Shown here: positions 16,781 through 50,936 of the stretch, piece after piece
Position numbering within the stretch: position 1 is the first letter of the stretch
Layout: each line of letters starts with the position of its first letter
DNA from: Candidatus Omnitrophota bacterium
GTDB taxonomy: Bacteria; Omnitrophota; Gorgyraeia; Aquiviventales; Aquiviventaceae
DNA: 64,000 nucleotides
Reading direction: 5' to 3'
Assembly (NCBI GenBank): GCA_016209275.1
Contig: JACQWM010000007.1
Location: 6,865-70,864, forward strand
Notes under the pieces: model-generated
Seen by the model: only the letters and a program-made list of their open reading frames with translations
Told to the model about the DNA's origin: nothing
The model's database searches: none
Translations under genes and position numbers: made by a program

Positions 16781-16784
16781 ATCA

Positions 16785-16814
16785 ATATCAGATATCGAAT
16801 TCGATATCTGATAT
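16785..16814. repeat. 30-nt perfect palindrome ATATCAGATATCGAATTCGATATCTGATAT (GATATCAGATAT family, GAATTC-centre variant)
   Basis: Read directly. It lies between convergent stops of the ABC exporter (16780) and the aquaporin (16818), a position consistent with a bidirectional terminator hairpin. Confidence 0.85.
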
Positions 16815-16817
16815 CGC

Positions 16818-21021: not shown

Positions 21022-21034
21022 CGTACGCAACAAC

Positions 21035-21120
21035 GACCCATGACACATGACCCATGACACATGACCAAACGAAACATCTGTTGTCGTGTGTCGTGAGTCA
21101 TAGGTCGTGTGTTATGTGTC
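21035..21120. repeat. CATGAC-heptamer imperfect inverted repeat, copy 2 (moeZ 5' region)
   Basis: Left arm gacccatgacacatgacccatgacacatgacc and right arm gtcgtgtgtcgtgagtcataggtcgtgtgttatgtgtc are about 75% reverse-complementary. Same core as the 8017-8091 element. Confidence 0.55.
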
Positions 21121-21136
21121 AAGGGTCGTCCTTTCG

Positions 21137-21550
21137 TCAAAAAGTGAGGACGCGGTCCGCGGTGGCGACGTCTTCGAGCAAAAACGCCGGAAGGCCGCGC
21201 ACCGCGTCGATCTCAGGAATCAAATCCTCTTTCTTCAACCCGCACATTTCCAGCGATGAACTGCACACGTAATATTGTACATCCCCCGAGGCCTTGATGT
21301 CGCGGCAGAGCTTGTGCACATCGAGGACGTCCAGCTTCTTCAGCCGCTGGATCACGCCGCCGGCTTCCCCCATAAACGCCGCCGAGAGCTCAATCTGATT
21401 GATGGCCTCTGGTGTCAGCCGAAACACCGATTCGTCGCGGAACAACACCCGGACTTTCATCTCCGAATGCACCGCCGCCATCAGCAGCGTGAGCACTTGG
21501 ATGAAGTTATTCGTCGTCACGCCAGAAACAATCACTGCAAGAGATTTCAT
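21137..21550 (-). CDS. DsrE/DsrF/TusD-like sulfur-relay family protein
   Basis: 137-aa protein with the DsrE-fold profile (N-terminal AVIVSG... and a conserved Cys region CSSSLEMCG). Confidence 0.6.
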   Translation of the reverse strand: MKSLAVIVSGVTTNNFIQVLTLLMAAVHSEMKVRVLFRDESVFRLTPEAINQIELSAAFMGEAGGVIQRLKKLDVLDVHKLCRDIKASGDVQYYVCSSSLEMCGLKKEDLIPEIDAVRGLPAFLLEDVATADRVLTF

Positions 21551-21582
21551 GGTTAGCTATCTGCTAATTGCTAGATGCTCCG

Positions 21583-23235
21583 TTAATACACGGGTCCATC
21601 GGATTCAGGCACTTGCGGTGTTGGCACATCGTCCATGTTGGACAGCGGATGCGGCTGTCCACCCGTGAGCAGTTTGGCCAGCTCGGCATCGCCGACGCGC
21701 GCGCACCAGTCATGAAACGATTCCCGCGCCTTGCGCTGTTGCGTGAAGGCGACCAGCACGCGTTCCAAGCGTTTGGCGCATTCGGCGGCGGGAATTTTTC
21801 GCACGATCGGATGATTAAATCCTGCCCCCTTCCCTAACCGGCCGCCGACAAACACGTCATACGCATCAACGATTTGACCATCGACTTTCGTTTTGGATCC
21901 CATCAGCCCAATGTTCGCAATCTGGTATTGCGCGCACGAGTTCGGACAGCCGGTGATATGCAGCCGCAGCGGCTCAGCCAGCGGCACATGCTGCTCCAGA
22001 TACTCCACGATCTGCCGCGAGCGCGCCTTCGTTTCGGTGATGGCCAGCTTGCAAAACTCAGTGCCGGTGCAGGTCACGACGCTGCGCCGAATCGGATGCG
22101 CATTGATGGAGAGTCCGACATCGGCCAGACCTGACAACACTGACTCGACATTCCGCTCTGGAATATTCAACAGAAGAATATTCTGCCGGACGGTCAACCG
22201 AATGGTGTTCCCGTCGCCATATCGTCGGCACAGATCCGCGACTCGTTTCATCTGGGGACTCGTGATCCGACCGACGAGCACCGGCGAACCAACGTAGTAC
22301 AACCCATCCTGCTTTTGCGCGTGCACCCCAACATGATCACGATAACTGTCTGAAGGCTCCTCATAGTCAGCCGGCGCATCATCAAGCTTCCGACCCAATC
22401 GCGCTTCCACCGTTTCACGAAATTTGGCCACGCCCCAGTCATGGATTAAATATTTAAACCGCGCATGATGGCGTTTCTCGCGATACTCGGGCGTTTCGCT
22501 CCAGAGATCCGTGATCTGCTGAATGACCGGCACGGCGTCTTCCGGCCGGATGAAGGCCTTCATCCGCTGGCTGATGAAGGGCTGCGTTGAGAGCCCGCCA
22601 CCCACACGCAGATCAAACCCTAGCTCTTGCCGTCCGTCCACGGCACGTGAGGCTGCCACCAGCGAGACGCATTGAATTTCGGGCAATGAGCACCACGTCC
22701 GGCAACCCGAAACGCCGATTTTGTATTTGCGGGGCAGATTGGCGTATTTCACGTTGCCGTAGAAAAAGTCGCTGACCGCTTTCGCGATCGGGCTGGCATC
22801 GAAAAGCTCTTCGCGATCGACACCGGCCACCGGACAGCCGACGACGTTGCGCAGAATATCGCCGCAGGCCCCCAAGGAGCCGATGCCGACGCGCTTGAGC
22901 CGCTCCAGGGTCGGGAGAATCTTCGAATAGTGGACCCAGTGCAGCTGGAAATCTTGCCGGGTGGTGATGTCGGCATATCCCTTCTGCCATTGCTCGGCGA
23001 TGGCGGCGATCTCCGCGAGCTGCTCGGGGGTCACAAACCCGTTGGGCTGCTTCGTGCGCAGCATGAAATACTCCGGCTCATGCCGATGCGTATAGAGGCC
23101 CAGCCACTTGCACATGAACAGATCATCTTCGGTCAGCGTTTCAACGCCTGCCGTGGCGGCGCGCTCAATGGCCTTCAGCACGTCAAAGGGATTCCCGTAT
23201 CGCTGTTTGATGGTTTCGGAGGTATTCGGCATCAC
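21583..23235 (-). CDS. sir: ferredoxin-dependent sulfite/nitrite reductase (siroheme-[4Fe-4S], NirA/Sir family)
   Basis: Two nitrite/sulfite-reductase ferredoxin-like half-domains and the siroheme/Fe-S cysteine cluster (CTGTEFCK..., TGCPNSCAQ). 550 aa. Confidence 0.8.
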   Translation of the reverse strand: MMPNTSETIKQRYGNPFDVLKAIERAATAGVETLTEDDLFMCKWLGLYTHRHEPEYFMLRTKQPNGFVTPEQLAEIAAIAEQWQKGYADITTRQDFQLHWVHYSKILPTLERLKRVGIGSLGACGDILRNVVGCPVAGVDREELFDASPIAKAVSDFFYGNVKYANLPRKYKIGVSGCRTWCSLPEIQCVSLVAASRAVDGRQELGFDLRVGGGLSTQPFISQRMKAFIRPEDAVPVIQQITDLWSETPEYREKRHHARFKYLIHDWGVAKFRETVEARLGRKLDDAPADYEEPSDSYRDHVGVHAQKQDGLYYVGSPVLVGRITSPQMKRVADLCRRYGDGNTIRLTVRQNILLLNIPERNVESVLSGLADVGLSINAHPIRRSVVTCTGTEFCKLAITETKARSRQIVEYLEQHVPLAEPLRLHITGCPNSCAQYQIANIGLMGSKTKVDGQIVDAYDVFVGGRLGKGAGFNHPIVRKIPAAECAKRLERVLVAFTQQRKARESFHDWCARVGDAELAKLLTGGQPHPLSNMDDVPTPQVPESDGPVY

Positions 23236-23248
23236 GGGCCTGACGATG

Positions 23249-24433
23249 TTACTTGGCTAACTCGACTTTGCTACCGACATCGTGCCACCAGCGGTCGAGC
23301 TCTGGCGTGAAGTATTTGACGCGGATTTTCTTGTACTCTTTTGTGCTGAAGAGATTCTTGTGGGGAAACGGCCCGGTCCGCTCCTCGATGCGCTTGGCGA
23401 CGTCCATGCACGCCGAATACGTCGCGGCATGGATCATGGTAAAGAGCGGATAGGGCCAATGCGGATAGATCGGGCGGCGGTAGCAGTGGCTGACTTCTCG
23501 GAACAGGGCCATCTGCTCGCCGACGACATCGGCCTGCTCCTGGGGCACTTGCCAGACGACCATCGCGTTGGCCAGAAATCCGGCGTTGCGATGGTGGAGA
23601 ATCGCAGCAAAGCGGCGCATGTAGCCTAAGCGTTCCATCTGTGTCGCCCAGGCGAATACGTCTTCTTCGCTCATGTCGGCCTGCTCGGCCCAGACGGCAT
23701 ACGGCATCTCGAGCAGCGGCAGATCCTCTTGCAGCACGCGGATGAGGCGGATGTCGGTGTCGCTCAGCGGGGGCTTCTGCGCCCATCGTTTTTTCTCATC
23801 GTAAATGTCTTCCGGGCTTTCGAGCGCAGACTCCTGCCCGGTCAGATCGAGCTTGACCCCGATCTTATACAGCCGCAAGGTCGGCAGGATGATGGTCTCC
23901 TCGGCCCGGGCGAGCGTGTGCAAAATCTGGATGACCTGCTCGAGCGAATCCCCGGGCGGCACCGCGATGGTAAACCAGATGTTAAAGGGGTCATTGCGCT
24001 TGTAGTTGTGCGACACGCCGGGGTGCTGATTGACCACCTCAGCCGCCTCATCCACGCGCTCCGGATCGACTTTCATCGCCGCCAGCGTGCTTTGGTAGCC
24101 GAGCGTGCGGGTATCGAAAATGGCGGAGAGCTGCCGAATCACGTGCTCACTTTTCAGCCGGCCGACGCGCGCGAGGCATTCCTGCTCGGAGAGGCCGAGT
24201 TTTTCTCCAAGCTGCTCAAAGGGCCGGTGGACCACGGGAAATTGCTTTTGCACCTCGGTGAGGAGCGCTCGGTCAATCGGATCAAGCACTGGCAGTTGGG
24301 GCATGGAGGTCGGCTGCTGCGGCGGCGTTGAGGCCGAAATCGGCCGCATACAATTGGGCAATCCGCGCGACGGCCTCCGCCGACAGCGGCGGGGCTGCGG
24401 CGGCGGCGACAAACTCCTGCAGCAGCGCTTCAT
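23249..24433 (-). CDS. siroheme decarboxylase, fused AhbA/AhbB (NirD/L-like) tandem Lrp/AsnC-fold protein
   Basis: Two tandem Lrp/AsnC-like modules. The second aligns closely with AhbA/NirD (GF.ANAMVVW.VP......VG...A...EVSHCY.R....WPY.LF.M.HA ... LFS.KE.KK.RV.YF). The likely true start is MPQLPVLDPIDRALL (about 24304) rather than the Arg/Pro-rich ORF-track extension. Confidence 0.75.
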   Translation of the reverse strand: MKRCCRSLSPPPQPRRCRRRPSRGLPNCMRPISASTPPQQPTSMPQLPVLDPIDRALLTEVQKQFPVVHRPFEQLGEKLGLSEQECLARVGRLKSEHVIRQLSAIFDTRTLGYQSTLAAMKVDPERVDEAAEVVNQHPGVSHNYKRNDPFNIWFTIAVPPGDSLEQVIQILHTLARAEETIILPTLRLYKIGVKLDLTGQESALESPEDIYDEKKRWAQKPPLSDTDIRLIRVLQEDLPLLEMPYAVWAEQADMSEEDVFAWATQMERLGYMRRFAAILHHRNAGFLANAMVVWQVPQEQADVVGEQMALFREVSHCYRRPIYPHWPYPLFTMIHAATYSACMDVAKRIEERTGPFPHKNLFSTKEYKKIRVKYFTPELDRWWHDVGSKVELAK

Positions 24434-25322
24434 TATAGATGTTCGGCAGCACGGATGCCACGGCCGGCTCTGACAAGATAAAGTGTATCGCCGCCTGCCC
24501 CAGGCTCCGTCCGGCGCGCTCGGTGAGAAACCCGAGCTGCTGAACTTTCTTCAAGCCGTTGACTTGCCATTGTCGTTTGCGCTCATCGGTGGAGACGCGA
24601 TGAAATCGGTGATCGTGCTCGGCAAACACCGTCTCAGGCTTGACGGTGCCATCCAGCAATCCTGAGGCATGCGGCACGCGCACGAGGAAGCTGGCGTGAT
24701 GCTGCCGGCCGAGAGGAAAGAGCCGCAGGCCCAGCATCTGCTCAAGCAAATTATAGATGATGTACACCATGTCGACGCTACGGCGCTCAATCGCATACGC
24801 CCCCTCATCCATCTGGCGCTCGGCGATGGCCGGGCCAAGCGATGGCCCATACGCGCGGATCTTCCCCTCGCTTTTGAGCGCCTCCAGTGTGGCGAAGAGA
24901 TCATCACGCTGTAACGCCTCGAGGCGGGGGTTGTGCAATTGATAGATGTCGATGTGGTCCGTCTGCAAGCGCGTGAGGCTTTCTTCGAGTGCTACGCGCA
25001 CGTACTCCGGACGCCAATCGTGGGGGAGCTCCTCCTGGCCGCTGCGCGCGGTGTGATGATAAAAATCGTAGCCGAACTTCGTGCCAATGGTGATGTCCTT
25101 GCGATGCTGGCCAAGGGCTTCAGCCAGGATCGTCTCGCCGCGGCCGCGGCCGTAGGTGTCGGCCGTATCAAAAAACGTGATGCCAAGGTCAAAGGCCCGG
25201 CGCAACAACTCGATGCCGACGGCCTCGTCTGTGATCCCCCACCAGGTTGTCGACACGGTCCAGACGCCGAACCCCACCTCGGATACCTTCACATCCGTCG
25301 CGCCAATGCGTCGAGTCTTCAT
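24282..25322 (-). CDS. aldo/keto reductase family oxidoreductase
   Basis: AKR motifs (FFDTADTYG, catalytic region). ATG at 25322 (MKTRRIG) verified. Its start codon overlaps the stop of the upstream radical-SAM gene (ATGA). Confidence 0.8.
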   Translation of the reverse strand: MKTRRIGATDVKVSEVGFGVWTVSTTWWGITDEAVGIELLRRAFDLGITFFDTADTYGRGRGETILAEALGQHRKDITIGTKFGYDFYHHTARSGQEELPHDWRPEYVRVALEESLTRLQTDHIDIYQLHNPRLEALQRDDLFATLEALKSEGKIRAYGPSLGPAIAERQMDEGAYAIERRSVDMVYIIYNLLEQMLGLRLFPLGRQHHASFLVRVPHASGLLDGTVKPETVFAEHDHRFHRVSTDERKRQWQVNGLKKVQQLGFLTERAGRSLGQAAIHFILSEPAVASVLPNIYNEALLQEFVAAAAAPPLSAEAVARIAQLYAADFGLNAAAAADLHAPTASA

Positions 25323-26086
25323 GCAAAGACCTCCGTGGGGATGCCGGTTGTCGATGTCAAGCGATCGGCAATCTGCTGTAGCTGCGACCGCGGCACCTTG
25401 TGAATCCCGTCGGCGGCGGTCGGCCGATCGATCGTATAGACCTGCACCGCGCGCGGCGAGAGCCAGCCGACTTTCTCGACCCATAATTGCAGATGGCCCT
25501 CCTGAGTGTTATCGCAAACCCCGTGGATAAACATGCTCTGGAGGATGATGTCGGGGACGCGCTTGAGCCCCTCGAGCATCGCCTGAAAATCAATCGAAAC
25601 CAGCGGTTGATTGATGCGCTGCCAGGTCGCGGCATCCGCCGCGTCGAATTTCATGCACCGCACATCCAGCAGCGCCAGGGCCTCGCGCACGCGCGGACGC
25701 ATTACCTGGGTCGCATCGGAGAGCATCCCGACGGCCGCGCGAGGAAAATAGGCATCGCGCAGCTGCTTGACTCCATCCACCAGCGCGGCGAGGTCCGGAT
25801 GCAGGGTGGGCTCGCCGTTGCCGGCAAATGTCAGGCAGTCCACCGGCGTCTTCGCCTCGGCATAGCGCTGCAGACTCCGCCGGATCTCGGCCAGCAGCTC
25901 TGGGGCCCGCCGCATCCGCTCGGGGGAGCCCTTCGCCGTCGTCCACCCATATTGGCAGTAGACGCAATTCGACGAACAGACCTTTCGGCTCACCGGCAGG
26001 AGATTGATCCCCAGGGAGTGGCCGAATCGCCGAGAATGGATCGGGCCGTAGACCGCAGCATCTTGGAGGGGAATTGGTGTCGGCAT
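25319..26086 (-). CDS. small radical SAM protein (CxxxCxxC: CSSNCVYC), function unknown
   Basis: Single N-terminal CX3CX2C motif with a downstream Gly-rich SAM-binding stretch (FAGNGEPTL). At 255 aa it is too short for AhbC/AhbD. Confidence 0.6.
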   Translation of the reverse strand: MPTPIPLQDAAVYGPIHSRRFGHSLGINLLPVSRKVCSSNCVYCQYGWTTAKGSPERMRRAPELLAEIRRSLQRYAEAKTPVDCLTFAGNGEPTLHPDLAALVDGVKQLRDAYFPRAAVGMLSDATQVMRPRVREALALLDVRCMKFDAADAATWQRINQPLVSIDFQAMLEGLKRVPDIILQSMFIHGVCDNTQEGHLQLWVEKVGWLSPRAVQVYTIDRPTAADGIHKVPRSQLQQIADRLTSTTGIPTEVFA

Positions 26087-26143: not shown

Positions 26144-26536
26144 TTAGGTTGGTGCGGCGGCGCGGCGCTTGAAGACCCGGTCGATCCGCAACAGCAGGTC
26201 TTCGTGGTCAAACGGTTTGATGATGTAGTCCTCGACGCCTTCAAGCTCAAACAAATCTTTCATCCGGTCGCGCGCCGTCAAGATGATGACCGGGGTTTTG
26301 CTGCGGCCGAACCGGTGGTTGAGCTCCCGCAAGCACGAATAGCCGTCCATGACCGGCATCAACACATCAAGAATGATCAGATCCGGATGCTCCTGCTCCA
26401 CCAACGCGAGGGCTTGCTGGCCGTCGTTGGCGACAAACGCCTGATAGCCTTTCGACTGCAATCGGATTTTAATGGCGAGTGCCAACTGCTGCTCATCATC
26501 CACGATAAGGATTTTCTTTCCCCCCGGCGGTGCCAT
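26144..26536 (-). CDS. stand-alone response-regulator receiver (CheY-like)
   Basis: KILIVDDE...DLIILDVLMP...K motif set, 130 aa, no output domain. Confidence 0.85.
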   Translation of the reverse strand: MAPPGGKKILIVDDEQQLALAIKIRLQSKGYQAFVANDGQQALALVEQEHPDLIILDVLMPVMDGYSCLRELNHRFGRSKTPVIILTARDRMKDLFELEGVEDYIIKPFDHEDLLLRIDRVFKRRAAAPT

Positions 26537-26540
26537 GGCA

Positions 26541-26927
26541 TCACCCTCCTTGTGCCGCGTCTAACAGCGATTGGACTGCTGAAACCACCTGCTCCGAGTG
26601 AAACGGCTTCTGCATGACGATCACGGAATCGAGTTTGGCCAATTGCCGCTCCCGCGCCCGCTCCGGCAGCGCGGTGAGGACCATCGCGGGAATCTTCGCG
26701 GTCGCTGGGTCGGCCTTGAGGCGCTGGAGCATTTCATAGCCATTCATCTTCGGCATGAGCAAATCGACGATGAGCAGATCCGGCGGCGGCGCCTGCCGGG
26801 CCTTCGCCAGCCCCTCTTCGCCGTTCTCGGCTGTCTCGCACAGGAAGCCGGCGGCCCGCAGGCGGATCGCCAGCGCGTAGCGCAGATCCGACTCATCATC
26901 CACGATCAGCACACGCTTGCCCATCAC
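26541..26927 (-). CDS. stand-alone response-regulator receiver (CheY-like)
   Basis: RVLIVDDE...DLLIVDLLMP...K motifs, 128 aa. 4-nt overlap with the upstream hybrid kinase. Confidence 0.85.
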   Translation of the reverse strand: MMGKRVLIVDDESDLRYALAIRLRAAGFLCETAENGEEGLAKARQAPPPDLLIVDLLMPKMNGYEMLQRLKADPATAKIPAMVLTALPERARERQLAKLDSVIVMQKPFHSEQVVSAVQSLLDAAQGG

Positions 26928-28927
26928 CCGGCCCCCTTGGGGTCCTGCTGCAGCACGTCGCGCACTTTCGCCAACAAGTCTTCGAGCTGAAACGGCTTGG
27001 CAATGTGGTTGTAGGTCGGATGATCCAGCCCCAGCCGTTCATCGGTGCGCTCGCCTTTGCCGGTCACGATGATGACCGGGATGTCTCTCGTGTTGGGGTT
27101 TTCCTTCAGGAGATGATAGACCTCGTACCCTTCCATCACCGGCATCATCAGATCCAGCAGAATCACGTCAGCGTGGTGGAGCTTCAGCAGCTCAAGGGCT
27201 TGGAGCCCCCCCTCGGCGGCCAGGACGTCATAGCCGCGGTGCTCCAGCGCCTCGGCAATGAATTGCCGCACTTTCGGCTCATCGTCCACGACCAAGACGC
27301 ACGGCTTGACTTCCTGGGCATGCTGGACTTGGCGATCGGCGGCGCGCAAGAGCTCCTCATCATTCAGGGCGTCATCGGGGTAGGTCGCCGTGGCAACTGT
27401 CACAGAGACCTTGATCGCGCGGCCGTCCACGGTCAGCCGCCAGGCGTTGATGGTGCGCAGCAGCCGCGCCATGATCGTCTGGGCCGTGGCTTTATCGACC
27501 TCTGAGAGCATCACGACCATCTCGCCGCGGTGCCACCGAATGACGACATCGCCGGCCCGGCGGCGGATGGTATCCCGAATGAGCAGCTCCATCTCCTTCA
27601 GCATCCGGCTCATTTCCTCCAGCCCGTACAACGCCATCAGCTCCTGGAACTTGACCACCGCCACGACCGCAATCGAAAAGGGGGCCTGCCGGCGTTTCGC
27701 CGATTCAACCCCCGCGCGGAGGTATTCGCGGAAGACGTCATCCAAATGCTGCTTGGGCAGGGTGAAGGAAAACACGCTGCCCTTGCCCGGCTCGCTCGAG
27801 GCTCGAATGGACCCCCCGTGCAGCTCAACCAGCCGCCGGCTGATCGCCAGCCCAAGCCCGGTGCCTTTGGAGCCGCTGCCGCCGATGCTGCGGCGGAACT
27901 GCTGGAATTTCTCGAAGAGCTTCGGCAGATCATCCGGGGCGATCCCCACCCCGGTATCGGAGACGCTGAATTCGAGCTCCGTGGACTGCTCAAAGACCGC
28001 CAGGCGCACTTTCCCGCCAGGATCGGTGAATTTGATGGCGTTGCTCACGAGATTCACGAGCACTTGCGTCATTTTATCGGCATCCACGAAGAGGCTCGGC
28101 AGCCCCGGAGGAAGGTCCGTCTCAAGGCTGACGCGCTTGCTCTCCGCCAGGGGCCGCATCGACTGTATCACGGCATCGACCAGCGCCTGAGGCTCCACCA
28201 ACCGCTTATTCAGCAGCACCCGGCCGGCCTCGATTTTCGCCATGTCGAGGAGGTCGTCGATGATCCGAGAGAGCCGATCGACATTGGCGGTGATGATGGA
28301 GAGATATTCCGTCTGATCCGGCGTGACGTCGCCCGCGATCCCATCGGCGATGATGGCGGTGAACTCTTTGATGGTCGACATGGGCGTGCGCAATTCGTGG
28401 CTGACCATGGAGACGAAGTCGGTTTTGAGCTCATCCAAGCGCTTGAGCTCATCATTAGCGCGCCGCAGCTCGACATTGCGCTCCTCCAGCAGCCGGGCGT
28501 GCTCCCACAACTCATTCTGCAGCTGCTCGCGCTCATCCTTCAAGTGCTTGCGCTCCAAGACCTCGCGGATCACCACCGGCAGCGCCGTCAGATGGCCCAT
28601 GTGGGGGGATTTGATGATGTAATCGTAGGCGCCGAGCTTCATCGCCTCAACCGCCAGCACCTCATCGCCGTGGCCGCTTAAGATGATGCACACCGCTCCG
28701 GGTTTCATGGTGGTAATCCGCCGCAGGATTTCCGTGCCGTGCAGATCGGGCAGCTTCATGTCCAGCAGGTACACATCGAAGGAGGCCGCCACGATCCGCT
28801 CCAGGCCTTGGCGGCCGGTCCGGCAGACGTCGACGACGAAGCCTTCATGCTCGAGGGCTTCCTTGGTCAGGAGGGCTTGCCCTTCGTCGTCCTCAATCAG
28901 GAGAATGGAGCGTGGGGTCTGGTCCAT
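26924..28927 (-). CDS. hybrid signalling protein: REC - coiled coil - HisKA - HATPase - degenerate GGDEF-like domain - REC
   Basis: N-terminal receiver, H-box (SHELRTPMSTI), N/G boxes, then a GGDEF-fold-like segment lacking the GG[DE]EF motif (RWHRGEMVVMLSE...), then a C-terminal receiver. Confidence 0.75.
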   Translation of the reverse strand: MDQTPRSILLIEDDEGQALLTKEALEHEGFVVDVCRTGRQGLERIVAASFDVYLLDMKLPDLHGTEILRRITTMKPGAVCIILSGHGDEVLAVEAMKLGAYDYIIKSPHMGHLTALPVVIREVLERKHLKDEREQLQNELWEHARLLEERNVELRRANDELKRLDELKTDFVSMVSHELRTPMSTIKEFTAIIADGIAGDVTPDQTEYLSIITANVDRLSRIIDDLLDMAKIEAGRVLLNKRLVEPQALVDAVIQSMRPLAESKRVSLETDLPPGLPSLFVDADKMTQVLVNLVSNAIKFTDPGGKVRLAVFEQSTELEFSVSDTGVGIAPDDLPKLFEKFQQFRRSIGGSGSKGTGLGLAISRRLVELHGGSIRASSEPGKGSVFSFTLPKQHLDDVFREYLRAGVESAKRRQAPFSIAVVAVVKFQELMALYGLEEMSRMLKEMELLIRDTIRRRAGDVVIRWHRGEMVVMLSEVDKATAQTIMARLLRTINAWRLTVDGRAIKVSVTVATATYPDDALNDEELLRAADRQVQHAQEVKPCVLVVDDEPKVRQFIAEALEHRGYDVLAAEGGLQALELLKLHHADVILLDLMMPVMEGYEVYHLLKENPNTRDIPVIIVTGKGERTDERLGLDHPTYNHIAKPFQLEDLLAKVRDVLQQDPKGAG

Positions 28928-28935
28928 GCCGCGTG

Positions 28936-29379
28936 TCAGTCGGGAAAGCGCACCACATCGAGAAACAGCCCCAGGGCCCGGACGCGCTCTTGAAAGTTTT
29001 CATACTGGATCGGCTTGACGATGTAGCTGTTCGCCCCCAGCTTATAGCACCGATTCACTTCGGCCTGGTCGTCGGTCGAGGTGAGCATCAGCACCGGAAT
29101 CAGCTTCAAACGCGGATCCGTCTTCACCCTTTCCAACACTGAAAAGCCGTCCAGCTTCGGCATTTTGATGTCCAGGAGAATCAGGCCGGGTTTCGGCGAT
29201 TTGCCCGCGTCCTGGTATTCGCCGCGCCGCAGCAGATAGTCCAGCGCTTGCTGGCCATCGGTCAGCTCGATGATATCATTGATAATGCCTCCCGCCCGAA
29301 GATTTTCCCGGATCAGCAGGCGATGACCCTCATCATCCTCCACCAGCAGAATCACAATGGATTGCTTTTCGTCAGTCAT
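28936..29379 (-). CDS. stand-alone response-regulator receiver
   Basis: ATG at 29379 (MTDEKQSIVILLVEDDEGH) verified. D-D-K receiver motifs. The ORF-track N-terminal extension (to 29712) overlaps the upstream kinase and is rejected. Confidence 0.8.
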   Translation of the reverse strand: MTDEKQSIVILLVEDDEGHRLLIRENLRAGGIINDIIELTDGQQALDYLLRRGEYQDAGKSPKPGLILLDIKMPKLDGFSVLERVKTDPRLKLIPVLMLTSTDDQAEVNRCYKLGANSYIVKPIQYENFQERVRALGLFLDVVRFPD

Positions 29380-29383
29380 CGCT

Positions 29384-31525
29384 TCAGCCCTCCGCTGTTC
29401 GCTGCTGATGGCGAGGCAGCGTGAAATAAAACGTGCTGCCCTGCCCCCGCTGCGAGACGACCCAGATTCTGCCGCCGTGGGCGCGCAGAATCTTGCGCAC
29501 ATAGGACAGCCCGACGCCTTCGCCGGGCACATCCACCGCCTGCAGGCGCGTGAACATCTGAAAGACCCGCTCTTGATCCTCCAGGGCGATGCCAATACCG
29601 GTATCGCGCACAAAACACTCGACACCGCCCTCCGTGTCCCGGCCGCCGATTTCAATGAAGCGGATGCCGGTGGCCCCCATATAGTTAACCGCATTGGACA
29701 CCAGATTGGCAAACACTTGGTTGATTTCGTTGCGCCGGCAGGGGACCTGGGCGGGCAGCGGGTGGCGGATCACCTGGATCGCCGCCTCCTTGAGCTGATG
29801 CTGCACGGTGGCGAGCGCGTCATCCACAATGGCATCCAGATCGTGCGGCTGCGGCGGATCGGCTCGCCGTCCCACGCGGGAGACGGCCAGGAGCGAGGCG
29901 AGCAGCGCGTCCATCTTCTCCACGCTTTTGGAAATAAACCGCAAGGATTCCGCGCACCGCGACTGCAGCTCCTGGCGCAAGGCGGTGATGTGCTCGGACA
30001 GAGCCTGATCGGCGCAGCGGCTCTGGGCGCGCTGCAGCGTGTCCACAGCATCTTGAATGACCGGGGCCAGCCGCGTGGAGAAGCCCTGGATATTGATGAG
30101 GGGTGCCCGCAGGTCGTGGGAGACGACCCGCAGCACATCTTCCATTTCTTGATTCACGGCCGAGAGCTCCTGGGTCGAGCGCTCCAAGCGTTTGGTGTAT
30201 TCTTCCAGTTCCGTTTTGGACGCCTGCAGCTCTTCGACCATGTGGTTGAACGACCGCGCCACATCGCTCAGCTCATCGTTGGTCGCCACCGGCACGTGCT
30301 GAGAGAGATCGCCGTACTCAGCGATCTTCCGCGCCGCGTCGGTCAGCTCGGCGAGCGGACTGGTGACCCCGCGCGTATAGTAGCGCCCCAGCAAAATCAC
30401 GATCCCCAGCACCTCAAACGCCACGACCCACGAAAACCGCACAAACTGCTGCAGGGGGAGCGCGAAATCCGACGGAAACGCCACGGACGTGAAGAGGTGC
30501 GGCGGGTTCATCGACCGCACAAACGCCACCACCCGGTGCTGGCCGACGCGATCGACCCACACGCCTTCGCGATCCCACCGGCTGAGGTCCGATTCGCGAA
30601 AGCGTTCTTCCGCGACATGGCGATACCCGCGCGGATGCGCGGAGATAATGCTCCCATCGGCCACGTTCGACTCAAACACATAGCCCTGGCTTCCCAGAGC
30701 CGCGTCCTGCAGCACCATCAGCCGTTCAGCCGGACGGGTCACAAAGCTCAGGCGCACCGCCGCCGCCCGCAATTGGGTCAGCGCTCGATCGCCCATGTAC
30801 CGCTCAGTAATGATTTGGCCCAGCTTGTAGGCCGCCGGCTGCAAGAGGCAGACGGCCGCAATCGCCAAGACGCACACCGTCCCAAGGAATTTGGCTTCCA
30901 GCGAGGCGCGAAACAGCGGCCTCGGGTGCCGCAGCTGGATGCTGCACCAACTGAGCACGGGCTGCAGCGCGCGCGCCGTCCCGAAATAGCAGAACGCTCC
31001 CTGCATGCCGCCCACCAGCGGGATCGCCGGCAGCGTCTTGACGATTTCGATGAAGGGCAGATGGGCCCCGACGTAGACCACGGCGATGCCAACCGCATAG
31101 GCGATGGCGGCCGCGACAAACGCGGAGCGCGCCACGTCCCATGGCAGCCGCAGGGCGCGCTCATACACCATCAAACATTCGGAACGATCCACCGGGCCGC
31201 CGGCGGTCCACCGGCTGAGCGCGTCGTGGATGGGACGATACCAGCGCCGGGGCAGGGCCACCACGCACACGCCGCCGACGAAGGGCAGGGCCACCACATG
31301 CATCCAGAGCATCCAGCGCTTCTGCTCCTCGTTCAGCAGCCAAGAAAACCAGGCATAGGTCAGCGCTAAGCCGAATCCGAAGACGACAACAGCCAGGCTC
31401 CAGACCCGCAGCAGCCGCAGCAGCGTTCTCCGCGGCGTTGGCAGCCCACCGGTGCTGGTCCTGGTTGTTGCCGCGGCTGATGGCTTCTGATGTCTGGCGC
31501 TTGTTTGATGATCGTTCATCATCAT
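29384..31525 (-). CDS. sensor histidine kinase with 6-TM N-terminal module, intra-membrane-loop sensor domain, HAMP, HisKA, HATPase
   Basis: Five N-terminal TM helices, a ~120-aa predicted extracytoplasmic domain, a sixth TM, a HAMP-like linker, H-box (SHDLRAPLINIQGF) and N/G1/G2 boxes. Paralog of the next gene. Confidence 0.8.
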   Translation of the reverse strand: MMMNDHQTSARHQKPSAAATTRTSTGGLPTPRRTLLRLLRVWSLAVVVFGFGLALTYAWFSWLLNEEQKRWMLWMHVVALPFVGGVCVVALPRRWYRPIHDALSRWTAGGPVDRSECLMVYERALRLPWDVARSAFVAAAIAYAVGIAVVYVGAHLPFIEIVKTLPAIPLVGGMQGAFCYFGTARALQPVLSWCSIQLRHPRPLFRASLEAKFLGTVCVLAIAAVCLLQPAAYKLGQIITERYMGDRALTQLRAAAVRLSFVTRPAERLMVLQDAALGSQGYVFESNVADGSIISAHPRGYRHVAEERFRESDLSRWDREGVWVDRVGQHRVVAFVRSMNPPHLFTSVAFPSDFALPLQQFVRFSWVVAFEVLGIVILLGRYYTRGVTSPLAELTDAARKIAEYGDLSQHVPVATNDELSDVARSFNHMVEELQASKTELEEYTKRLERSTQELSAVNQEMEDVLRVVSHDLRAPLINIQGFSTRLAPVIQDAVDTLQRAQSRCADQALSEHITALRQELQSRCAESLRFISKSVEKMDALLASLLAVSRVGRRADPPQPHDLDAIVDDALATVQHQLKEAAIQVIRHPLPAQVPCRRNEINQVFANLVSNAVNYMGATGIRFIEIGGRDTEGGVECFVRDTGIGIALEDQERVFQMFTRLQAVDVPGEGVGLSYVRKILRAHGGRIWVVSQRGQGSTFYFTLPRHQQRTAEG

Positions 31526-31538
31526 CTGTGACGTGAAA

Positions 31539-33560
31539 TTACTGACGGCTCAGCTCAGTATACCGCATGGCCATCGGCAACGTGAATATGAAGGTGCTCC
31601 CCTGCCCTGGCTCCGAAACCACCCGGATCGTGCCCCCGTGCGCATGGAGGATCTTGCGCACGTAGGCCAACCCGATGCCTTCGCCGGGGACGTCGATCGT
31701 CTGCAACCGAGTGAAGAGCTGGAAGATCCGCTCCTGATCAGCCGGGGTGATGCCAATGCCGGTATCCCGGACGTAGCACTCCGCGAACTCCCCGTGCGCA
31801 GCGCCGCCGATCTCAATCTGGCGTGTGGAACATGCTCCCATGTACTTGATGGCATTGCTCAACAGGTTGGAGAAGACCTGGTTGATTTCGTTGCGCCGGC
31901 AGGGGATCTGGGCGGGCAGCGGGTGGCGCACCAGCTCAATCTGTTGCTCCTTGAGCTGATGGGTGAGGGTCGCCAGGACATCATCGAGGATCTGGTCGAG
32001 ATCATGGGGCGCGATGGGATCCGCCCGGCGGCCGACGCGGGAGATGGCCAGCAGCGAGCCGAGCAGCGTGTCCATCTTCTCGACGCTCTTGAAGATGAAT
32101 TGCATGGATTCCTGGATCCGCTCCGGCGCGCCTGGCGTAGGAGTCTTCAGGAGCTGGTCGAGGCGCTTGGCGAAGCCTTGGATGTTAATCAGGGGGGCGC
32201 GCAGGTCGTGGGAGACGACCCGGAGCAGATCTTCCATTTCTTGGTTGAGCGCGGAGAGGTTTTGCGTGGACTGCTCGAGCCGCTCGACCATCTGATTAAA
32301 GGAGTGGGCCAAGTCGCTGAGCTCATCGTCCGTGGCCACGGGGACGTGCTGAGACAAGTTTCCTGAGCCGGCGATGGCCCGGACGGCGTCGGTTAATTCG
32401 CCGAGCGGCGTGGTCAAGCCGCGGGTGTAGTAGCGCGCAAAGAGAAACACGAGGCAGAGAATCTCGGCGGTCACGAACAACGAGAAGAAGACAAAGCGGC
32501 GCAGCGGAGCGGAGAAATCATCCGGAAACGACACCGAGACCAGGGTCCACGGCGGATCGCTGATCCGGAGGAACGTGATAATCCGATGCTCTCCGACGCG
32601 ATCAATAAGCGTGCCTTCGTCGCCGGCCCAAAACTCGCGATGGCGTTGAAAGAGCCGCTCTTGCGACAGGGATGTATACCTTAGCGCATGGGGAGTCTCG
32701 ATGCGGCCCTCGGCGGTGCCGGCCACAAAGACATACCCATGAGCCCCCATCACGGCTTCATGAAGAATCTTCATTCGCTCGCTCGGTGGCGTCACAATGG
32801 AAATTCGCGCCGCGGCCGCGCGCAATTGGGTCAGCGCCCGATCGCGCAGATACTGCTCTGTGATCGTCTGGCCCAGGGTGTACGCCGCCGGCGGCAGAAA
32901 GCAGACCGCCGCAATCGCCGAGACCCAGGTGACGGCGAAAAACTTCACCCCAAGCGAGACGCCGCGGAGGGGGCGCGGAACCTTCAGCTGCGCGCTGCAC
33001 CAGACCGCCACCGGATACCATCCCCGGATCGTTCCAAAGTAGCCGAAGCTTCCGCACATGCCGCACACCAACGGGATGATGGGCAGCGCTTTCAGCACCT
33101 CCACCCACGGCATCTCAACAGCGACGCGCATGATGACGATGCCGATGGCGGTACCAATGGTGATCATCGTCGAGGCAAGGATGGCCACTCGCCACGGCAT
33201 CCGTAGGGCATCCTCGTAGAGCTTCGTGCATTCTACCCGGCTGATGGGCGCACCCGCAACCCATGACATGAGCTTTCGATACATTGGGCCATAGTACAAC
33301 AGCCACAGATACACCCAGCACGCGACCCCCCCGACCGGCGCGATGACAAATACGATCGAGATCAGCCACCGCCACTGAATGGGATCCAGGAGCCAGGCGG
33401 AGCGGAGATACGTGAGGATGACGCCAAACCCGAACACCACCAAGGTGGCCAGCCACACACGAAAGAGGTACAAAATCACTTGGAGGGGTGCCAAGGGAGG
33501 TGCGTGCTCATTGCGCGTGAGAACATCCGCTGGCGCTGCCGCGTCGCTGAGGTTTTTCAT
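31539..33560 (-). CDS. sensor histidine kinase, tandem paralog of 29384..31525
   Basis: Same architecture and collinear similarity of roughly 45-50% (e.g. YYTRG(V/L)T(S/T)PL(A/G)ELTDA.R.IA..G(D/N)LSQHVPVAT(N/D)DELSD). Confidence 0.8.
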   Translation of the reverse strand: MKNLSDAAAPADVLTRNEHAPPLAPLQVILYLFRVWLATLVVFGFGVILTYLRSAWLLDPIQWRWLISIVFVIAPVGGVACWVYLWLLYYGPMYRKLMSWVAGAPISRVECTKLYEDALRMPWRVAILASTMITIGTAIGIVIMRVAVEMPWVEVLKALPIIPLVCGMCGSFGYFGTIRGWYPVAVWCSAQLKVPRPLRGVSLGVKFFAVTWVSAIAAVCFLPPAAYTLGQTITEQYLRDRALTQLRAAAARISIVTPPSERMKILHEAVMGAHGYVFVAGTAEGRIETPHALRYTSLSQERLFQRHREFWAGDEGTLIDRVGEHRIITFLRISDPPWTLVSVSFPDDFSAPLRRFVFFSLFVTAEILCLVFLFARYYTRGLTTPLGELTDAVRAIAGSGNLSQHVPVATDDELSDLAHSFNQMVERLEQSTQNLSALNQEMEDLLRVVSHDLRAPLINIQGFAKRLDQLLKTPTPGAPERIQESMQFIFKSVEKMDTLLGSLLAISRVGRRADPIAPHDLDQILDDVLATLTHQLKEQQIELVRHPLPAQIPCRRNEINQVFSNLLSNAIKYMGACSTRQIEIGGAAHGEFAECYVRDTGIGITPADQERIFQLFTRLQTIDVPGEGIGLAYVRKILHAHGGTIRVVSEPGQGSTFIFTLPMAMRYTELSRQ

Positions 33561-33890
33561 GGAGTTTTAAGCCCTGTTAAGGGGCATTACGTGAAGTATA
33601 CCTGACGGAGGCAGCGCGAAACAATGCAACAGCAAGATGGGCCAACGGTTAGAACGGTTAGAGCGTCGCGGCCCAGCGGAGAAACCGCAGGAGGATCGTG
33701 GGGTGGCGGATCACAAACGCGGCGAAGCGGGCGGCGGTGATGTCCTCGGCATGGAGCAGCCGGCCCTGCTCATCCAGCACGCCATACGTCTCCAGGCGCC
33801 AGCGCAGCAGCGGGGAGCGCCAGGGAGTGAGGACGTACGGCCAGCTCAGGCGAATGGCGACAAGAAGCATACGAAACCACAGCATAAAAA

Positions 33891-34020
33891 TTACCAATTA
33901 CCAAGCACCAATGACCAAACAATCACCAATTTTCCAATGACCAAATCACCAAACGTTTGGTTATTGGTCATTCAGTCATTGGTCATGGTTTGGTAATTGG
34001 AATTTGGTTATTGGTTATTT
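33891..34020. repeat. CCAA-heptamer inverted-array element (~130 bp imperfect palindrome), copy A
   Basis: Left arm ttaCCAAttaCCAAgcaCCAAtgaCCAAacaatcaCCAAttttCCAAtgaCCAAatcaCCAAacg is mirrored by tTTGGttaTTGGtcattcagtcaTTGGtcatggtTTGGtaaTTGGaatTTGGttaTTGGtta, centred on aaacg|tttgg. About 80% identical to copy B. Confidence 0.75.
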
Positions 34021-36644: not shown

Positions 36645-38265
36645 GCTCGTGATCCATTATAATAGAAGGATGGACGCTGTGGAATACCTTCTCGAGGAAA
36701 TTGCGCGCACGCTGCCGGAGAATCGCACCGCCCTTCGGAAGCTCAAAACCGCTGTGGCCTCACAAACGCGCAGGGCGGCCCTCATCCGGAATGACGCGCT
36801 GCTCAGACTCTACCGCCGGCAAGTCGAGCATGGCCAGCGCGCGTCCAATGAGCGGCTCGAGCAGATCTTAACACTCAACGGCATCCGCTCGCAGTCCGGG
36901 ATTGCCACCGTGACCGTGATCACCGAGCCGTACGCCTGCCCTGGCCGCTGCGTGTACTGCCCCACCGAGGCGCGAGCGCCCAAAAGCTACCTCACCAATG
37001 AGCCGGCCGTCATGCGCGCCCTGCGCCATGACTATGATCCGTACCGGCAAGTCACGAGCCGCTTGGAAGCGCTTGAGGAAACCGGCCATGCCACCGAGAA
37101 GATCGAACTCATCATCAAAGGCGGCACGTGGTCGTTTTATCCTCAGGCGTATCAACAGGAATTCATCAAGCGGTGCTTTGATGCCGCCAACACCCTATCG
37201 TCCCCGACACTTGAAGAAGCCCAGCGCGTGAATGAGACCGCGCAGCATCGAATGATTGGCGTGACGATTGAGACGCGGCCGGATTACATCGACGACGCAG
37301 AACTCCGACGATTGCGAAGACTTGGAGTGACGCGGGTGGAATTAGGCGTGCAGAGTCTTGAGGATTCCGTGCTGCGACTCATCGTGCGCGACCACGGAAC
37401 CATCGAAATCCGCCACGCCACGCGACGACTGAAAGATGCCGGGTTTAAAGTGGCGTATCACCTCATGCCGAATCTTCCGGGAGCGACACCAGAGAGCGAT
37501 CTTCAGACGGCGCGTCGGCTCGTTGATGATCCAGCCTACCGGCCGGATGCGATGAAAATCTACCCCTGCGTCGTCATCGACACGGCCGAGCTGTATCAGT
37601 GGTGGCGGCAGGGGCGCTATGCGCCGTATGACGATGAGACGCTCATTGAGCTGCTCATCGCGATCAAACAGCTTGTTCCGCCGTATCTGCGGATTGAACG
37701 AGTGATCCGCGACATTCCCTCCACGTCCATTCGCGCCGGGTGCCTGATCACGAATCTTCGGGAAACAACGCAGCGTCGGATGCGCGCGCAAGAACTGCGC
37801 TGCCGCTGCATCCGCTGCCGGCAAGTGCGCGGAGATACGGAAGGACCGTTTACGCTCATCCGCCGCGATTATGAGGCATCCGATGGAACGGAAATGTTCT
37901 TGAGTTTCGAGGACGTCGCGCGCGATCAGCTCGCTTCACTGCTGCGCCTGCGCATCCCGGGACGGTTGATAGCAGATATCCCGCGACGCGGGATATCTGC
38001 TATCGCCTTGTTTCCGGCACTCGAGGATGCCGCGCTGATCCGAGAGTTGCATTCCTACGGCCACCATGTGCCCCTGCATCGGCGCCGCCAAGGGGCGGTG
38101 CAGCACCGAGGGCTCGGCCAGCAGTTGCTTGAGGAGGCGGAACGCATTGCGCGGGAGGAATTCGGGAAACGCCGGATGGCCGTGATTGCCGGTGTCGGGG
38201 TGCGCGACTACTACCGGCGCTTCGGTTACGAGCTCGAAGACACCTATATGGTCAAAACGCTGTAA
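36643..38265 (+). CDS. elp3: Elp3-like radical SAM / GNAT tRNA-modification acetyltransferase
   Basis: Radical-SAM motif CPGRCVYCP, a central ELP3 domain and a C-terminal GNAT domain. 540 aa. Confidence 0.8.
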   Translation: MLVIHYNRRMDAVEYLLEEIARTLPENRTALRKLKTAVASQTRRAALIRNDALLRLYRRQVEHGQRASNERLEQILTLNGIRSQSGIATVTVITEPYACPGRCVYCPTEARAPKSYLTNEPAVMRALRHDYDPYRQVTSRLEALEETGHATEKIELIIKGGTWSFYPQAYQQEFIKRCFDAANTLSSPTLEEAQRVNETAQHRMIGVTIETRPDYIDDAELRRLRRLGVTRVELGVQSLEDSVLRLIVRDHGTIEIRHATRRLKDAGFKVAYHLMPNLPGATPESDLQTARRLVDDPAYRPDAMKIYPCVVIDTAELYQWWRQGRYAPYDDETLIELLIAIKQLVPPYLRIERVIRDIPSTSIRAGCLITNLRETTQRRMRAQELRCRCIRCRQVRGDTEGPFTLIRRDYEASDGTEMFLSFEDVARDQLASLLRLRIPGRLIADIPRRGISAIALFPALEDAALIRELHSYGHHVPLHRRRQGAVQHRGLGQQLLEEAERIAREEFGKRRMAVIAGVGVRDYYRRFGYELEDTYMVKTL

Positions 38266-38267
38266 GA

Positions 38268-38301
38268 CGATATCAGATATCGAATTCGATATCTGATATC
38301 G
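38268..38301. repeat. 34-nt perfect palindrome CGATATCAGATATCGAATTCGATATCTGATATCG (GATATCAGATAT family)
   Basis: Read directly. It lies between convergent stops of elp3 (38265) and the ferredoxin gene (38305). Confidence 0.88.
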
Positions 38302-38304
38302 CTT

Positions 38305-38619
38305 TTAGTTGACGAGTTTGTTGCCGGCTCGCTTGGGGGGATCGTTCTTGGGCCGTTCGGGCGCAGGGGGATTGTTCTTAAACTGCGGCGTCAGCTCTTT
38401 ATTGATGGCGGCATAGGCTTTGTCTTCATCTTCAGAGGCCACAATCGCCCCCACCGGACATTCCGGCAAGCAGAGGCCGCAGTTGATGCAGACTTCCGGG
38501 TCGATGATCATGAACTCCTGACCCTTGTAGTCGCCGGGATGAATGCATTCGACCGGACAGACTGTGGCACAAACTGCGTATCGATCGCCCAAGCATTTTT
38601 CCGTGATCACATACGCCAT
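38305..38619 (-). CDS. 2x[4Fe-4S]/7Fe-type ferredoxin
   Basis: CxxxxxxCxxxCP and CxxCxxCxxxCP motifs (CLGDRYAVCATVCP, CINCGLCLPECP). Confidence 0.8.
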   Translation of the reverse strand: MAYVITEKCLGDRYAVCATVCPVECIHPGDYKGQEFMIIDPEVCINCGLCLPECPVGAIVASEDEDKAYAAINKELTPQFKNNPPAPERPKNDPPKRAGNKLVN

Positions 38620-39919: not shown

Positions 39920-39941
39920 TCGCCAACCAAAACGAATTTTC

Positions 39942-39987
39942 GATTGACGATTTATGATTGACGATTAATTATCGACAATCGTCAATC
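39942..39987. promoter_or_regulatory. three copies of an 11-mer GATTGACGATT (two direct, one inverted) in the 5' region of the DUF819 gene
   Basis: cGATTGACGATTtatGATTGACGATTaattatcgacAATCGTCAATCgaa, 17-62 nt upstream of the ATG at 40004. Candidate operator array, read from sequence only. Confidence 0.4.
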
Positions 39988-40003
39988 GAACATCGTAAAT
40001 CCC

Positions 40004-46975: not shown

Positions 46976-46985
46976 CTATGGAAAT

Positions 46986-49861: not shown

Positions 49862-49906
49862 ACCAGGTAGCGCAGGTTTAAACCTGCGCTACCTGGTGTG
49901 CGCTAC

Positions 49907-50920: not shown

Positions 50921-50936
50921 GGCTTCCTTTCCTAAA

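Follow-up and report, generated by a model that had tools for sequence, protein, structure and literature searches.

The window analyzed here, a stretch of 64,000 nucleotides (nt) from a Candidatus Omnitrophota bacterium (contig JACQWM010000007.1), contains at 26144-33560 six co-directional, nearly abutting minus-strand genes, which encode two sensor histidine kinases (HK_A and HK_B), one hybrid kinase (HYB), and three single-domain receivers (REC1, REC2, and REC3). This cluster is a vertically inherited chromosomal two-component operon, the synteny of which is conserved in a clade of Candidatus Omnitrophota. Each of its parts is of a known kind, with variants in the domain order of HYB and in the membrane sensor module of HK_A and HK_B. 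Regarding the flow of the signal, we propose a two-tier kinase cascade leading from HK_A and HK_B via HYB to the receivers, a proposal for which we consider the chances to be evenly balanced.

A conserved two-component operon

An earlier reading made from the letters alone (in the following the sequence-only reading) had placed six consecutive genes on the minus strand of this region; all six were found, and Pfam annotation matches every domain that it had described. With the start of REC1 corrected to the ATG at 29379, the intergenic distances from HK_A to REC3 are 13, 4, 8, -4, and 4 nt, whereby the start codon of REC2 overlaps the stop codon of HYB (GTGA). No convincing intrinsic terminators were found between the six genes, and together with the spacing this is an operon-like arrangement. 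As read from the sequences, the phosphorylation residues are intact throughout: each of the three kinases has its H-box His, and each of the five receivers has DD, D, T/S, and K. Neither Pfam nor NCBIfam returned a DNA-binding or any other output domain for the six proteins, as had been anticipated for a cluster said to be devoid of a DNA-binding response regulator.

Related loci were labelled L001-L010, L064, and L065 (close clade) and L012-L024 (more distant Omnitrophota). In about 12 related Omnitrophota genomes the gene order is the same and runs def, ygfZ (on the opposite strand), tpx, an open reading frame (ORF) of 75 amino acids (aa), sensor kinase, REC1, HYB, (REC2), and REC3, followed by (radical SAM), (aldo-keto reductase), NirDL/AhbAB-like, sulfite/nitrite reductase, (DsrE), and ThiF-rhodanese genes. 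The syntenic proteins share 50-67% identity across the relatives. A sensor kinase and REC1 are jointly present in eight of them, and REC3 follows HYB in every relative whose contig runs past HYB, including L007, while the contig of L006 stops right after HYB. REC2 is present in L002, L003, L005, L010, and L065 and absent from L001, L004, L007, L008, L009, and L064. In the more distant Omnitrophota, a kinase controlled by a receiver (Rec-HK) and a REC3-like receiver are kept, in some cases in tandem arrays, and the GGDEF-REC tail of HYB is missing.

The term "island", which had been applied to the region, does not hold. A genomic island was rejected in view of the recurrent gene order in the relatives, the housekeeping genes which flank the cluster, and its unremarkable GC content (0.60-0.635 across bins; window range 0.57-0.655).

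The 75-aa ORF situated upstream of the kinases, which the sequence-only reading had overlooked, was found at 56-72% identity in 10 related loci, two of which lack the membrane kinase, and has no Pfam match. Its N terminus contains a hydrophobic stretch, and the sequence carries the motifs TPWRSPLLRWR.ETYG and RFLRWAA. The ORF is a neighbour which possibly forms part of the unit.

Table 1. Positions of the six genes, of two domains encoded by them, and of the adjoining ORF
Feature	Position	Strand	Description	Basis
HK_A	31539-33560	minus	673 aa; 5 TM, Cache-like loop, TM6, HAMP, HisKA, HATPase	Pfam, hydropathy, AlphaFold
HK_A Cache-like extracytoplasmic domain	32496-32897	minus	aa 222-355	AlphaFold2 model and Foldseek
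HK_B	29384-31525	minus	713 aa; architecture as HK_A	Pfam
REC1	28936-29379	minus	147 aa; single-domain receiver, Rcp1/RcpB (phytochrome-associated) type	Pfam, PDB matches
HYB	26924-28927	minus	667 aa; REC (D56), coiled coil, HisKA (H177), HATPase, degenerate GGDEF, REC (D592)	Pfam
HYB degenerate GGDEF (pseudo-cyclase) domain	27308-27742	minus	aa 396-540	Pfam GGDEF, alignment to TM1788
REC2	26541-26927	minus	128 aa; single-domain receiver	Pfam
REC3	26144-26536	minus	130 aa; single-domain receiver, OmpR-family-like, without output domain	Pfam, PDB matches
75-aa ORF	33658-33885	minus	no known family; adjoins the kinases upstream	Conservation in related loci

The sensor kinases and their input module

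HK_A and HK_B are Class I (HisKA) transmembrane sensor histidine kinases with a membrane anchor, an extracytoplasmic input region, and a HAMP linker. Pfam matches to HAMP, HisKA, and HATPase_c were obtained at 4.5e-16, 1.2e-8, and 5.5e-26 for HK_A and at 1.7e-15, 9e-6, and 6.6e-24 for HK_B, respectively, the HisKA match of HK_B lying with 26.1 bits slightly below the gathering cutoff of 26.9 bits. The motifs SHDLRAP or SHELRTP, NL[LV]SNA, DTG[IV]GI, and G.G[IVL]GL were read from the sequences of HK_A, HK_B, and HYB, and in HK_A the H-box (SHDLRAP) as well as the N, G1, and G2 boxes are intact.

According to hydropathy and AlphaFold, HK_A comprises five transmembrane (TM) helices, a loop of 134 aa, and a sixth TM helix in front of HAMP. 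Six and four Lys/Arg residues are located in the predicted cytoplasmic loops and none in either of the short outer loops, a charge distribution that fits an N-in topology and thus places the long loop outside the cell. The quality of the AlphaFold2 model of the sensor depended on the alignment supplied, since 20 sequences resulted in a predicted local distance difference test (pLDDT) of 87 and three sequences in an unusable one of 49. The model consists of the five membrane helices, a long helix, and a PAS-like unit of helices and strands, with helices at HK_A residues 222-253 and 259-268 and strands at 276-281, 315-320, 326-333, and 338-344. In a Foldseek search against the PDB, the top matches of this model were almost exclusively Cache ligand-binding domains (McpH, PscC, Mlp24/37, TlpB, and histidine-kinase ectodomains), with a probability of about 1.0 for the best. 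HK_A and HK_B themselves have no Pfam Cache match at E <= 0.1, and among 36 relatives of the family three match Pfam dCache_1 and one matches Cache_3-Cache_2. The modelled structure thus supports a Cache fold of the HK_A loop, which the sequence-only reading had put forward with a question mark as "Cache/PDC-like".

As in known Cache ligand-binding proteins such as McpH, PscC, Mlp24, and TlpB, the modelled loop of HK_A combines a long helix with a PAS-like fold containing a beta-sheet and leads into a TM helix and HAMP. In contrast to these proteins, four additional TM helices with conserved motifs precede the TM-Cache-TM unit of HK_A. Among their conserved residues are the invariant P122, K206, and E235, and a role of the helices in sensing or transduction, beyond mere anchoring, is conceivable.

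The complete 5TM-Cache-TM module is rare. A word-index search with the sensor region of HK_A found one protein only, and an exhaustive profile search among 1.84 billion protein representatives yielded 49 representatives at E <= 0.001 and 20 at E <= 1e-10. Neither Pfam nor NCBIfam contains a model of the complete module, and no description of a 5TM-Cache input module was found in the literature searched. Elsewhere, the module is joined via HAMP to histidine kinase, methyl-accepting chemotaxis protein (MCP), SpoIIE, or GAF outputs and hence behaves as a portable input module. One relative stems from a metagenome-assembled genome of the Gemmatimonadota, so that the module is not confined to a single phylum.

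HK_A and HK_B had been described as paralogs with 45-50% similarity; the paralogy was confirmed, but the figure was too low, as they share 55% identity and 67% similarity over 671 aa. With this degree of divergence, the possibility of near-identical assembly duplicates, which the sequence-only reading had itself raised, was rejected. The relatives carry a single membrane kinase or, in case of L006 and L007, none. HK_B is 57-63% identical to the single-copy kinases found among L001-L009, whereas HK_A shares 51-55% identity with these orthologs and 56% with HK_B, and branches basally in a neighbor-joining tree of the kinases. In addition, HK_A exhibits a deletion of 14 aa (exactly two heptads) in the helix connecting HAMP and DHp and a deletion of 23 aa in the DHp loop (connector). 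Divergence is greatest in its membrane bundle (43-47% identity, compared to 58-65% between orthologs), and for the Cache domain all pairs compared, the paralogs included, show about 50% identity. On the basis of these comparisons, HK_B is the ancestral copy, orthologous to the single kinase of the relatives, and HK_A a strongly diverged extra copy. Either the duplication is old, or HK_A diverged rapidly thereafter.

The identities and the tree led us to reject a recent duplication. The "recent diversification of the sensor domain" that had been concluded from the tandem arrangement is not supported on either count, HK_A being about as distant from HK_B as from the orthologs and the Cache domain showing no special divergence between the paralogs. 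Both kinases share SHDLRAPLINIQGF in DHp helix 1, and helix 2 is near-identical. Since helix 1 selects the partner, its near-identity suggests that HK_A and HK_B feed the same receivers.

The hybrid kinase and its degenerate GGDEF domain

In HYB, Pfam identifies two Response_reg domains (9e-52 for the whole protein), HisKA (1.5e-18), HATPase_c (1.7e-31), and GGDEF (5.7e-17). Residues 51-391 are collinear with residues 51-375 of the LvrB chain in PDB 8vc9 (E 2e-19), and the order of receiver, helical linker, DHp, and catalytic (CA) domain in a cytoplasmic protein marks HYB as a probable Rec-controlled histidine kinase of the LvrB type. In LvrB of Leptospira interrogans, phosphorylation of D56 induces the formation of a coiled coil and thereby liberates the catalytic domain (PMC13269768). 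Residues 1-393 of HYB reproduce the order Rec, signalling helix, DHp, and CA, both proteins are cytoplasmic, and the phospho-acceptor Asp is located at position 56 in HYB as well, together with the further receiver residues DD, S84, and K106. By analogy, activation of the HYB kinase would proceed through phosphorylation of its N-terminal receiver. Unlike LvrB, HYB additionally contains a degenerate GGDEF domain and a C-terminal receiver.

A full-length search revealed that HYB belongs to a family which, clustered at 90% identity, comprises at least 120 clusters. Every listed member has the same Pfam set, and 120 members were used for the conservation counts. They are 42-67% identical to the protein of the window, and those with a named source belong almost exclusively to the Omnitrophota and are automatically annotated as "response regulator" or "diguanylate cyclase-like". 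By these relatives, the source of the window is placed in Candidatus Omnitrophota. The best match in a species-representative genome is 65% identical, identities within the related loci range from 50 to 65%, and a 100% identical protein occurs in a Logan assembly. H177 was found in 120 of 120 and D592 in 116 of 116 aligned members. In the N-terminal receiver, D56 is present in 103 and K106 in 102 of 110 aligned members, position 84 being occupied by T in 91 and by S in 12. In some members this receiver is replaced by PAS domains or missing, and the conserved core of the family accordingly consists of the histidine kinase, the GGDEF-like domain, and the C-terminal receiver. The domain arrangement had been called unusual, which is correct insofar as no description of it was found in the literature searched; within the clade, however, it is the norm.

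The assignment of the domain between kinase core and C-terminal receiver to the GGDEF fold is secure by sequence comparison (62.4 bits for PF00990 with a cutoff of 23.8; matches to diguanylate cyclases of the PDB at 3e-10). In an alignment to the diguanylate cyclase TM1788, HRGEM occupies the position of the GGDEF motif, in accordance with the loss of the catalytic motif noted earlier. The metal-binding Asp is replaced by Ala, the guanine-binding Asn and Asp are replaced by Met and Ser, respectively, and the C-terminal phosphate-binding helix with its Lys/Arg is missing. The same losses were observed across the 120 relatives. Judged by its sequence, the domain is a catalytically dead pseudoenzyme (hereafter pseudo-cyclase) that does not synthesize cyclic di-GMP (c-di-GMP). 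As all GTP- and metal-binding residues are lost, the replacements also argue against binding of GTP at the active site (A-site). GTP binding at this site was therefore rejected, and with it the proposed "GTP-binding module".

Despite the lost catalytic residues, the domain is under purifying selection and not decaying. R455, G459, D460, R464, W465, and G468 of the family motif R455-x3-G459-D460-V-V-x-R464-W465-[QR]-R-G468-E-M as well as R488 and a T-Y-P-[DE]-[DE] motif are each conserved in 113-120 of 120 members, and the RW[QR]RGEM hairpin is near-invariant. A family hidden Markov model of the domain matched in the close clade only; it missed the distant Rec-HK loci and the matches in Planctomycetota and Acidobacteriota, and an active ancestor was not identified. 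A word-index search with the GGDEF-like domain alone returned nothing, which reflects the sensitivity limit of this search.

The most likely function of the pseudo-cyclase, judged by analogy, is that of a regulatory or spacer module, possibly ligand-responsive, which governs how the C-terminal receiver reaches DHp. A template in terms of domain placement is ShkA of Caulobacter crescentus, a DHp-CA-pseudoRec-Rec hybrid kinase activated by c-di-GMP (10.1101/675454). Like ShkA, HYB is a cytoplasmic hybrid kinase with a degenerate non-catalytic domain between catalytic domain and terminal receiver, and by this model the mechanism would consist in the liberation of the terminal receiver. The intervening domains, a pseudo-receiver in ShkA and a pseudo-cyclase in HYB, are nevertheless unrelated in sequence, and ShkA lacks an N-terminal receiver.

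Possible, although we regard it as doubtful, is a role of the degenerate domain as c-di-GMP receptor of the PopA/SgmT type, for which a retained inhibitory site (I-site) composed of R457-A-G-D460 and R488 would be used. Binding would either localize HYB or, as in ShkA, free the C-terminal receiver and switch the kinase activity. Such a role is compatible with the cascade. Besides ShkA, a precedent is given by SgmT of Myxococcus xanthus, which is composed of GAF, histidine kinase, REC, and degenerate GGDEF domains and binds c-di-GMP via its I-site (PMC3509222). HYB resembles SgmT in being a hybrid histidine kinase with a dead A-site GGDEF domain that lacks the phosphate-binding Lys/Arg, and the RxxD of HYB is located exactly five residues before HRGEM, with the secondary Arg (R488) 31 residues after R457, the same spacing as between R763 and R794 of SgmT (PMC3509222). 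Of 120 relatives, 118 have D460, 117 have R488, and 107 have an Arg or Lys at position -3 or -4.

Opposed to this are several observations. R457 itself is present in only 59 of 120 relatives (Gly in 25 and Gln in 20), whereas the I-site is conserved in all SgmT homologs (PMC3509222), and relative to TM1788 the HYB family carries an insertion of two residues at the hairpin turn. A search of the window and of about 1 Mb of related loci, a small and biased sample, recovered the HYB domain itself but no canonical GGDEF cyclase. SgmT differs from HYB in its domain order (HK-REC-GGDEF compared to REC-HK-GGDEF-REC) and has a DNA-binding partner, DigR, of a kind not known for HYB. A remodelled basic patch (R455, R456 or R457, D460, and R488) could sense c-di-GMP or another nucleotide, in analogy to ShkA but with a different fold as its origin.

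Receivers, signal flow, and genomic neighbourhood

Pfam Response_reg matches were obtained for REC1 (4e-21), REC2 (9e-20), and REC3 (3e-26). The best PDB matches of REC1 are 3heb, 5ic5, RcpB (1k66), and Rcp1 (1i3c), with E-values from 4e-38 to 2e-23. It shares with Rcp1, RcpA, and RcpB of the cyanobacterial phytochromes the characteristic insertion before the phospho-acceptor Asp and is likewise encoded directly after its presumed kinase, this kinase being, however, a membrane Cache sensor and not a phytochrome. REC3, with best matches to the receivers of CovR, YycF, and PhoP, resembles the OmpR family, so that neither REC1 nor REC3 is CheY-like. With identities of 70-84% in the relatives, REC3 is the best-conserved signalling protein of the cluster. 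Receiver helix 1 displays the pattern EDDEG..LL..E.L in both REC1 and the N-terminal receiver of HYB, and the C-terminal receiver of HYB, REC2, and REC3 have VDDE in common.

In the first tier of the proposed cascade, HK_A and HK_B would sense an external ligand by the Cache-fold domain between TM5 and TM6 and pass the signal through HAMP to the HisKA/HATPase core, from which the Rcp1-like REC1 and D56 in the N-terminal receiver of HYB would be phosphorylated. This corresponds to the Leptospira system, in which the sensor kinase LvrA feeds the Rec domain of LvrB. In the second tier, phosphorylation of D56 would drive coiled-coil formation in HYB and free its catalytic domain, H177 would be autophosphorylated, and the phosphate would be transferred to D592, to REC3, and, where present, to REC2. 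The pseudo-cyclase would modulate the access of the C-terminal receiver to DHp, analogous to the pseudo-receiver of ShkA. The output would consist of protein-protein contacts of the single-domain receivers or depend on a partner encoded elsewhere. Phosphorylation partners, activation mechanism, and the role of the pseudo-cyclase are what we infer for this cluster.

Several points weigh against the cascade. Partner assignment rests on adjacency, on co-occurrence in about 12 genomes, and on a weak resemblance of the helices 1. L001 has a membrane kinase but no REC1, and L006 and L007 have HYB but neither membrane kinase nor REC1, which indicates that the two tiers can work separately. The Foldseek E-values of the Cache matches are weak (0.026-0.5), as the query included membrane helices. 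Finally, no output domain was found in the six proteins.

The main rival, in our estimation rather unlikely, is the coexistence of two independent systems, HK_A and HK_B with REC1 on the one hand and HYB with REC3 (and REC2) on the other, with HYB being fed from elsewhere, e.g., by the REC-PAS-HK-REC-REC hybrid at 17495-19831, so that adjacency would reflect conserved gene order and not wiring. The loci L006 and L007 fit this explanation, as do the distant Omnitrophota, where Rec-HK and REC genes are found in different surroundings, among them the tandem arrays of L019 and L020, and a second Rec-HK is encoded 6 kb away. Moreover, synteny extends over the whole neighbourhood (def, ygfZ, tpx ... 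sulfite reductase, thiF), and adjacency alone therefore carries little weight. On the other hand, genes that overlap or lie 4-13 nt apart with no terminators in between, the direct overlap of the kinase gene with HYB in L001, and the helix-1 pattern common to REC1 and the N-terminal receiver of HYB speak for a connection.

A classical His-Asp-His-Asp phosphorelay is quite improbable. Here the C-terminal receiver of HYB or one of the single-domain receivers would hand the phosphate to an Hpt protein and this in turn to a terminal regulator possessing an output domain, the genes of both lying elsewhere. HYB does end in a canonical receiver with all catalytic residues, as phosphorelay hybrid kinases do, and a local output domain is lacking, but neither the six proteins nor about 45 other ORFs of the window scanned yielded an Hpt domain, and none appears in those related contigs for which Pfam annotation was available. 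For the same reason, the "branched phosphorelay" of the sequence-only reading is not supported in its strict sense. Phosphate sinks are an established idea, as for CheY1 of Sinorhizobium, but that the receivers mainly serve as such sinks, extra receivers tuning signal duration beside one real output and the pseudo-cyclase being an inert spacer, is very improbable: REC2 is indeed dispensable, being absent from about half of the relatives, yet REC3 is the most conserved signalling protein, and a hairpin (R-W-[QR]-R-G-E-M) which is near-invariant over sequences that are otherwise 42-67% identical to the protein of the window is not expected of an inert spacer.

A chemotaxis-like output, which had also been suggested, was rejected, as no CheA, CheW, or MCP was found among the approximately 50 window ORFs scanned. 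By contrast, the exclusion of transcriptional control does not follow from the missing DNA-binding regulator. The LvrB effector LvrC was not known beforehand, and it took structural modelling together with phosphotransfer profiling to single it out from the response regulators of the genome (PMC13269768). Its anti-sigma output domain has no counterpart in the receivers beside HYB. As an effector may be encoded elsewhere, the cluster may have a transcriptional output.

The second Rec-controlled hybrid kinase of the window (17495-19831, minus strand, 778 aa) comprises REC, PAS, HisKA, HATPase, and two receivers and is encoded just past the gene for ThiF-rhodanese. In L002 and L009, a match coding for a receiver occupies the corresponding place downstream of thiF, which suggests that this kinase is syntenic as well, and it may be part of the same network. 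In L019 and L020, REC-HisKA-HATPase genes occur in tandem, each followed by single-domain receivers, and in L019 a span of 10 kb contains three Rec-HK genes along with several REC genes.

The window holds two distinct sulfite/nitrite reductase (NIR_SIR) genes, in the regions 19873-24433 and 60209-61957. On either side of the cluster-proximal copy lie a fused NirD/L-like gene (siroheme decarboxylase AhbA/B-like) and the ThiF-rhodanese gene, with a DsrE-like gene situated between them in L065; throughout the clade, this group remains linked to the signalling genes. A functional link of the cluster to tpx, the siroheme decarboxylase-like protein, sulfite reductase, and thiF was considered. We leave this as speculation, because the whole region is syntenic and distant Rec-HK modules occur without these neighbours. 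The longest ORF of the aldo-keto reductase (24282-25484) overlaps the ORFs 23249-24433 and 25319-26086 by approximately 150 and 165 nt, respectively. The products of the relatives have 327-350 aa, and the true starts in this part are probably internal (e.g., MKTRRIG... for the reductase).

Long intergenic hairpins, the arms of which consist of tandem heptamer repeats (period 7), are located at 33886-34016, 46976-47125, 21025-21135, 39935-39995, 38262-38310, and 16775-16822. In the spacer between tpx and the 75-aa ORF, (ACCAAnn)n faces (TTGGTnn)n, with an RNA folding energy (dG) of -56 kcal/mol and a z of -7.95. The TTGGTnn unit forms a second hairpin at about 47 kb (z -5.8), and the remaining sites use other heptamers. 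TTGGTNNTTGGT occurs 20 times, compared to 1.3 expected occurrences. In the relatives, seven of nine orthologous spacers checked hold a hairpin with repeats of about 7 nt (dG -33 to -65), the repeat unit differing per genome. These hairpins resemble the STRR repeats of cyanobacteria.

Further away, a BatA/VWA, DUF58, and MoxR-type AAA+ set resembling an aerotolerance operon (42681-51277, minus strand) is interrupted by a gene encoding a fusion of glycosyltransferase and O-antigen ligase, and a LexA gene is located at 41129-41767. Tandem repeats with periods of 21 and 63 at 59183-59986 lie inside the ORF 58849-60111 (420 aa, no Pfam match), indicating a protein with repeated units of 7 or 21 residues.

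Little was found to be published on signal transduction in the Omnitrophota, which are uncultured. The operon shows that a sensor kinase, a Rec-controlled hybrid kinase, and single-domain receivers stay together across an entire clade without a transcription-factor output, and kinase-cascade modules that lack output domains may be common to the Omnitrophota in general. Apart from the pseudo-cyclase of HYB and the sensor module, this is an ordinary, if elaborate, two-component cluster, and we consider it unlikely that the operon unites two undescribed modules, the 5TM-Cache region as a new sensor input family and the pseudo-cyclase as a new gating module. The operon nonetheless flags a membrane sensor module that is missed by current domain libraries, and the at least 120 protein clusters of the HYB family provide a concrete and abundant case of a GGDEF fold recycled as a non-catalytic module in a histidine kinase. 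If the pseudo-cyclase gates phosphotransfer or binds a nucleotide, it would represent a second, independent solution beside the pseudo-receiver of ShkA.

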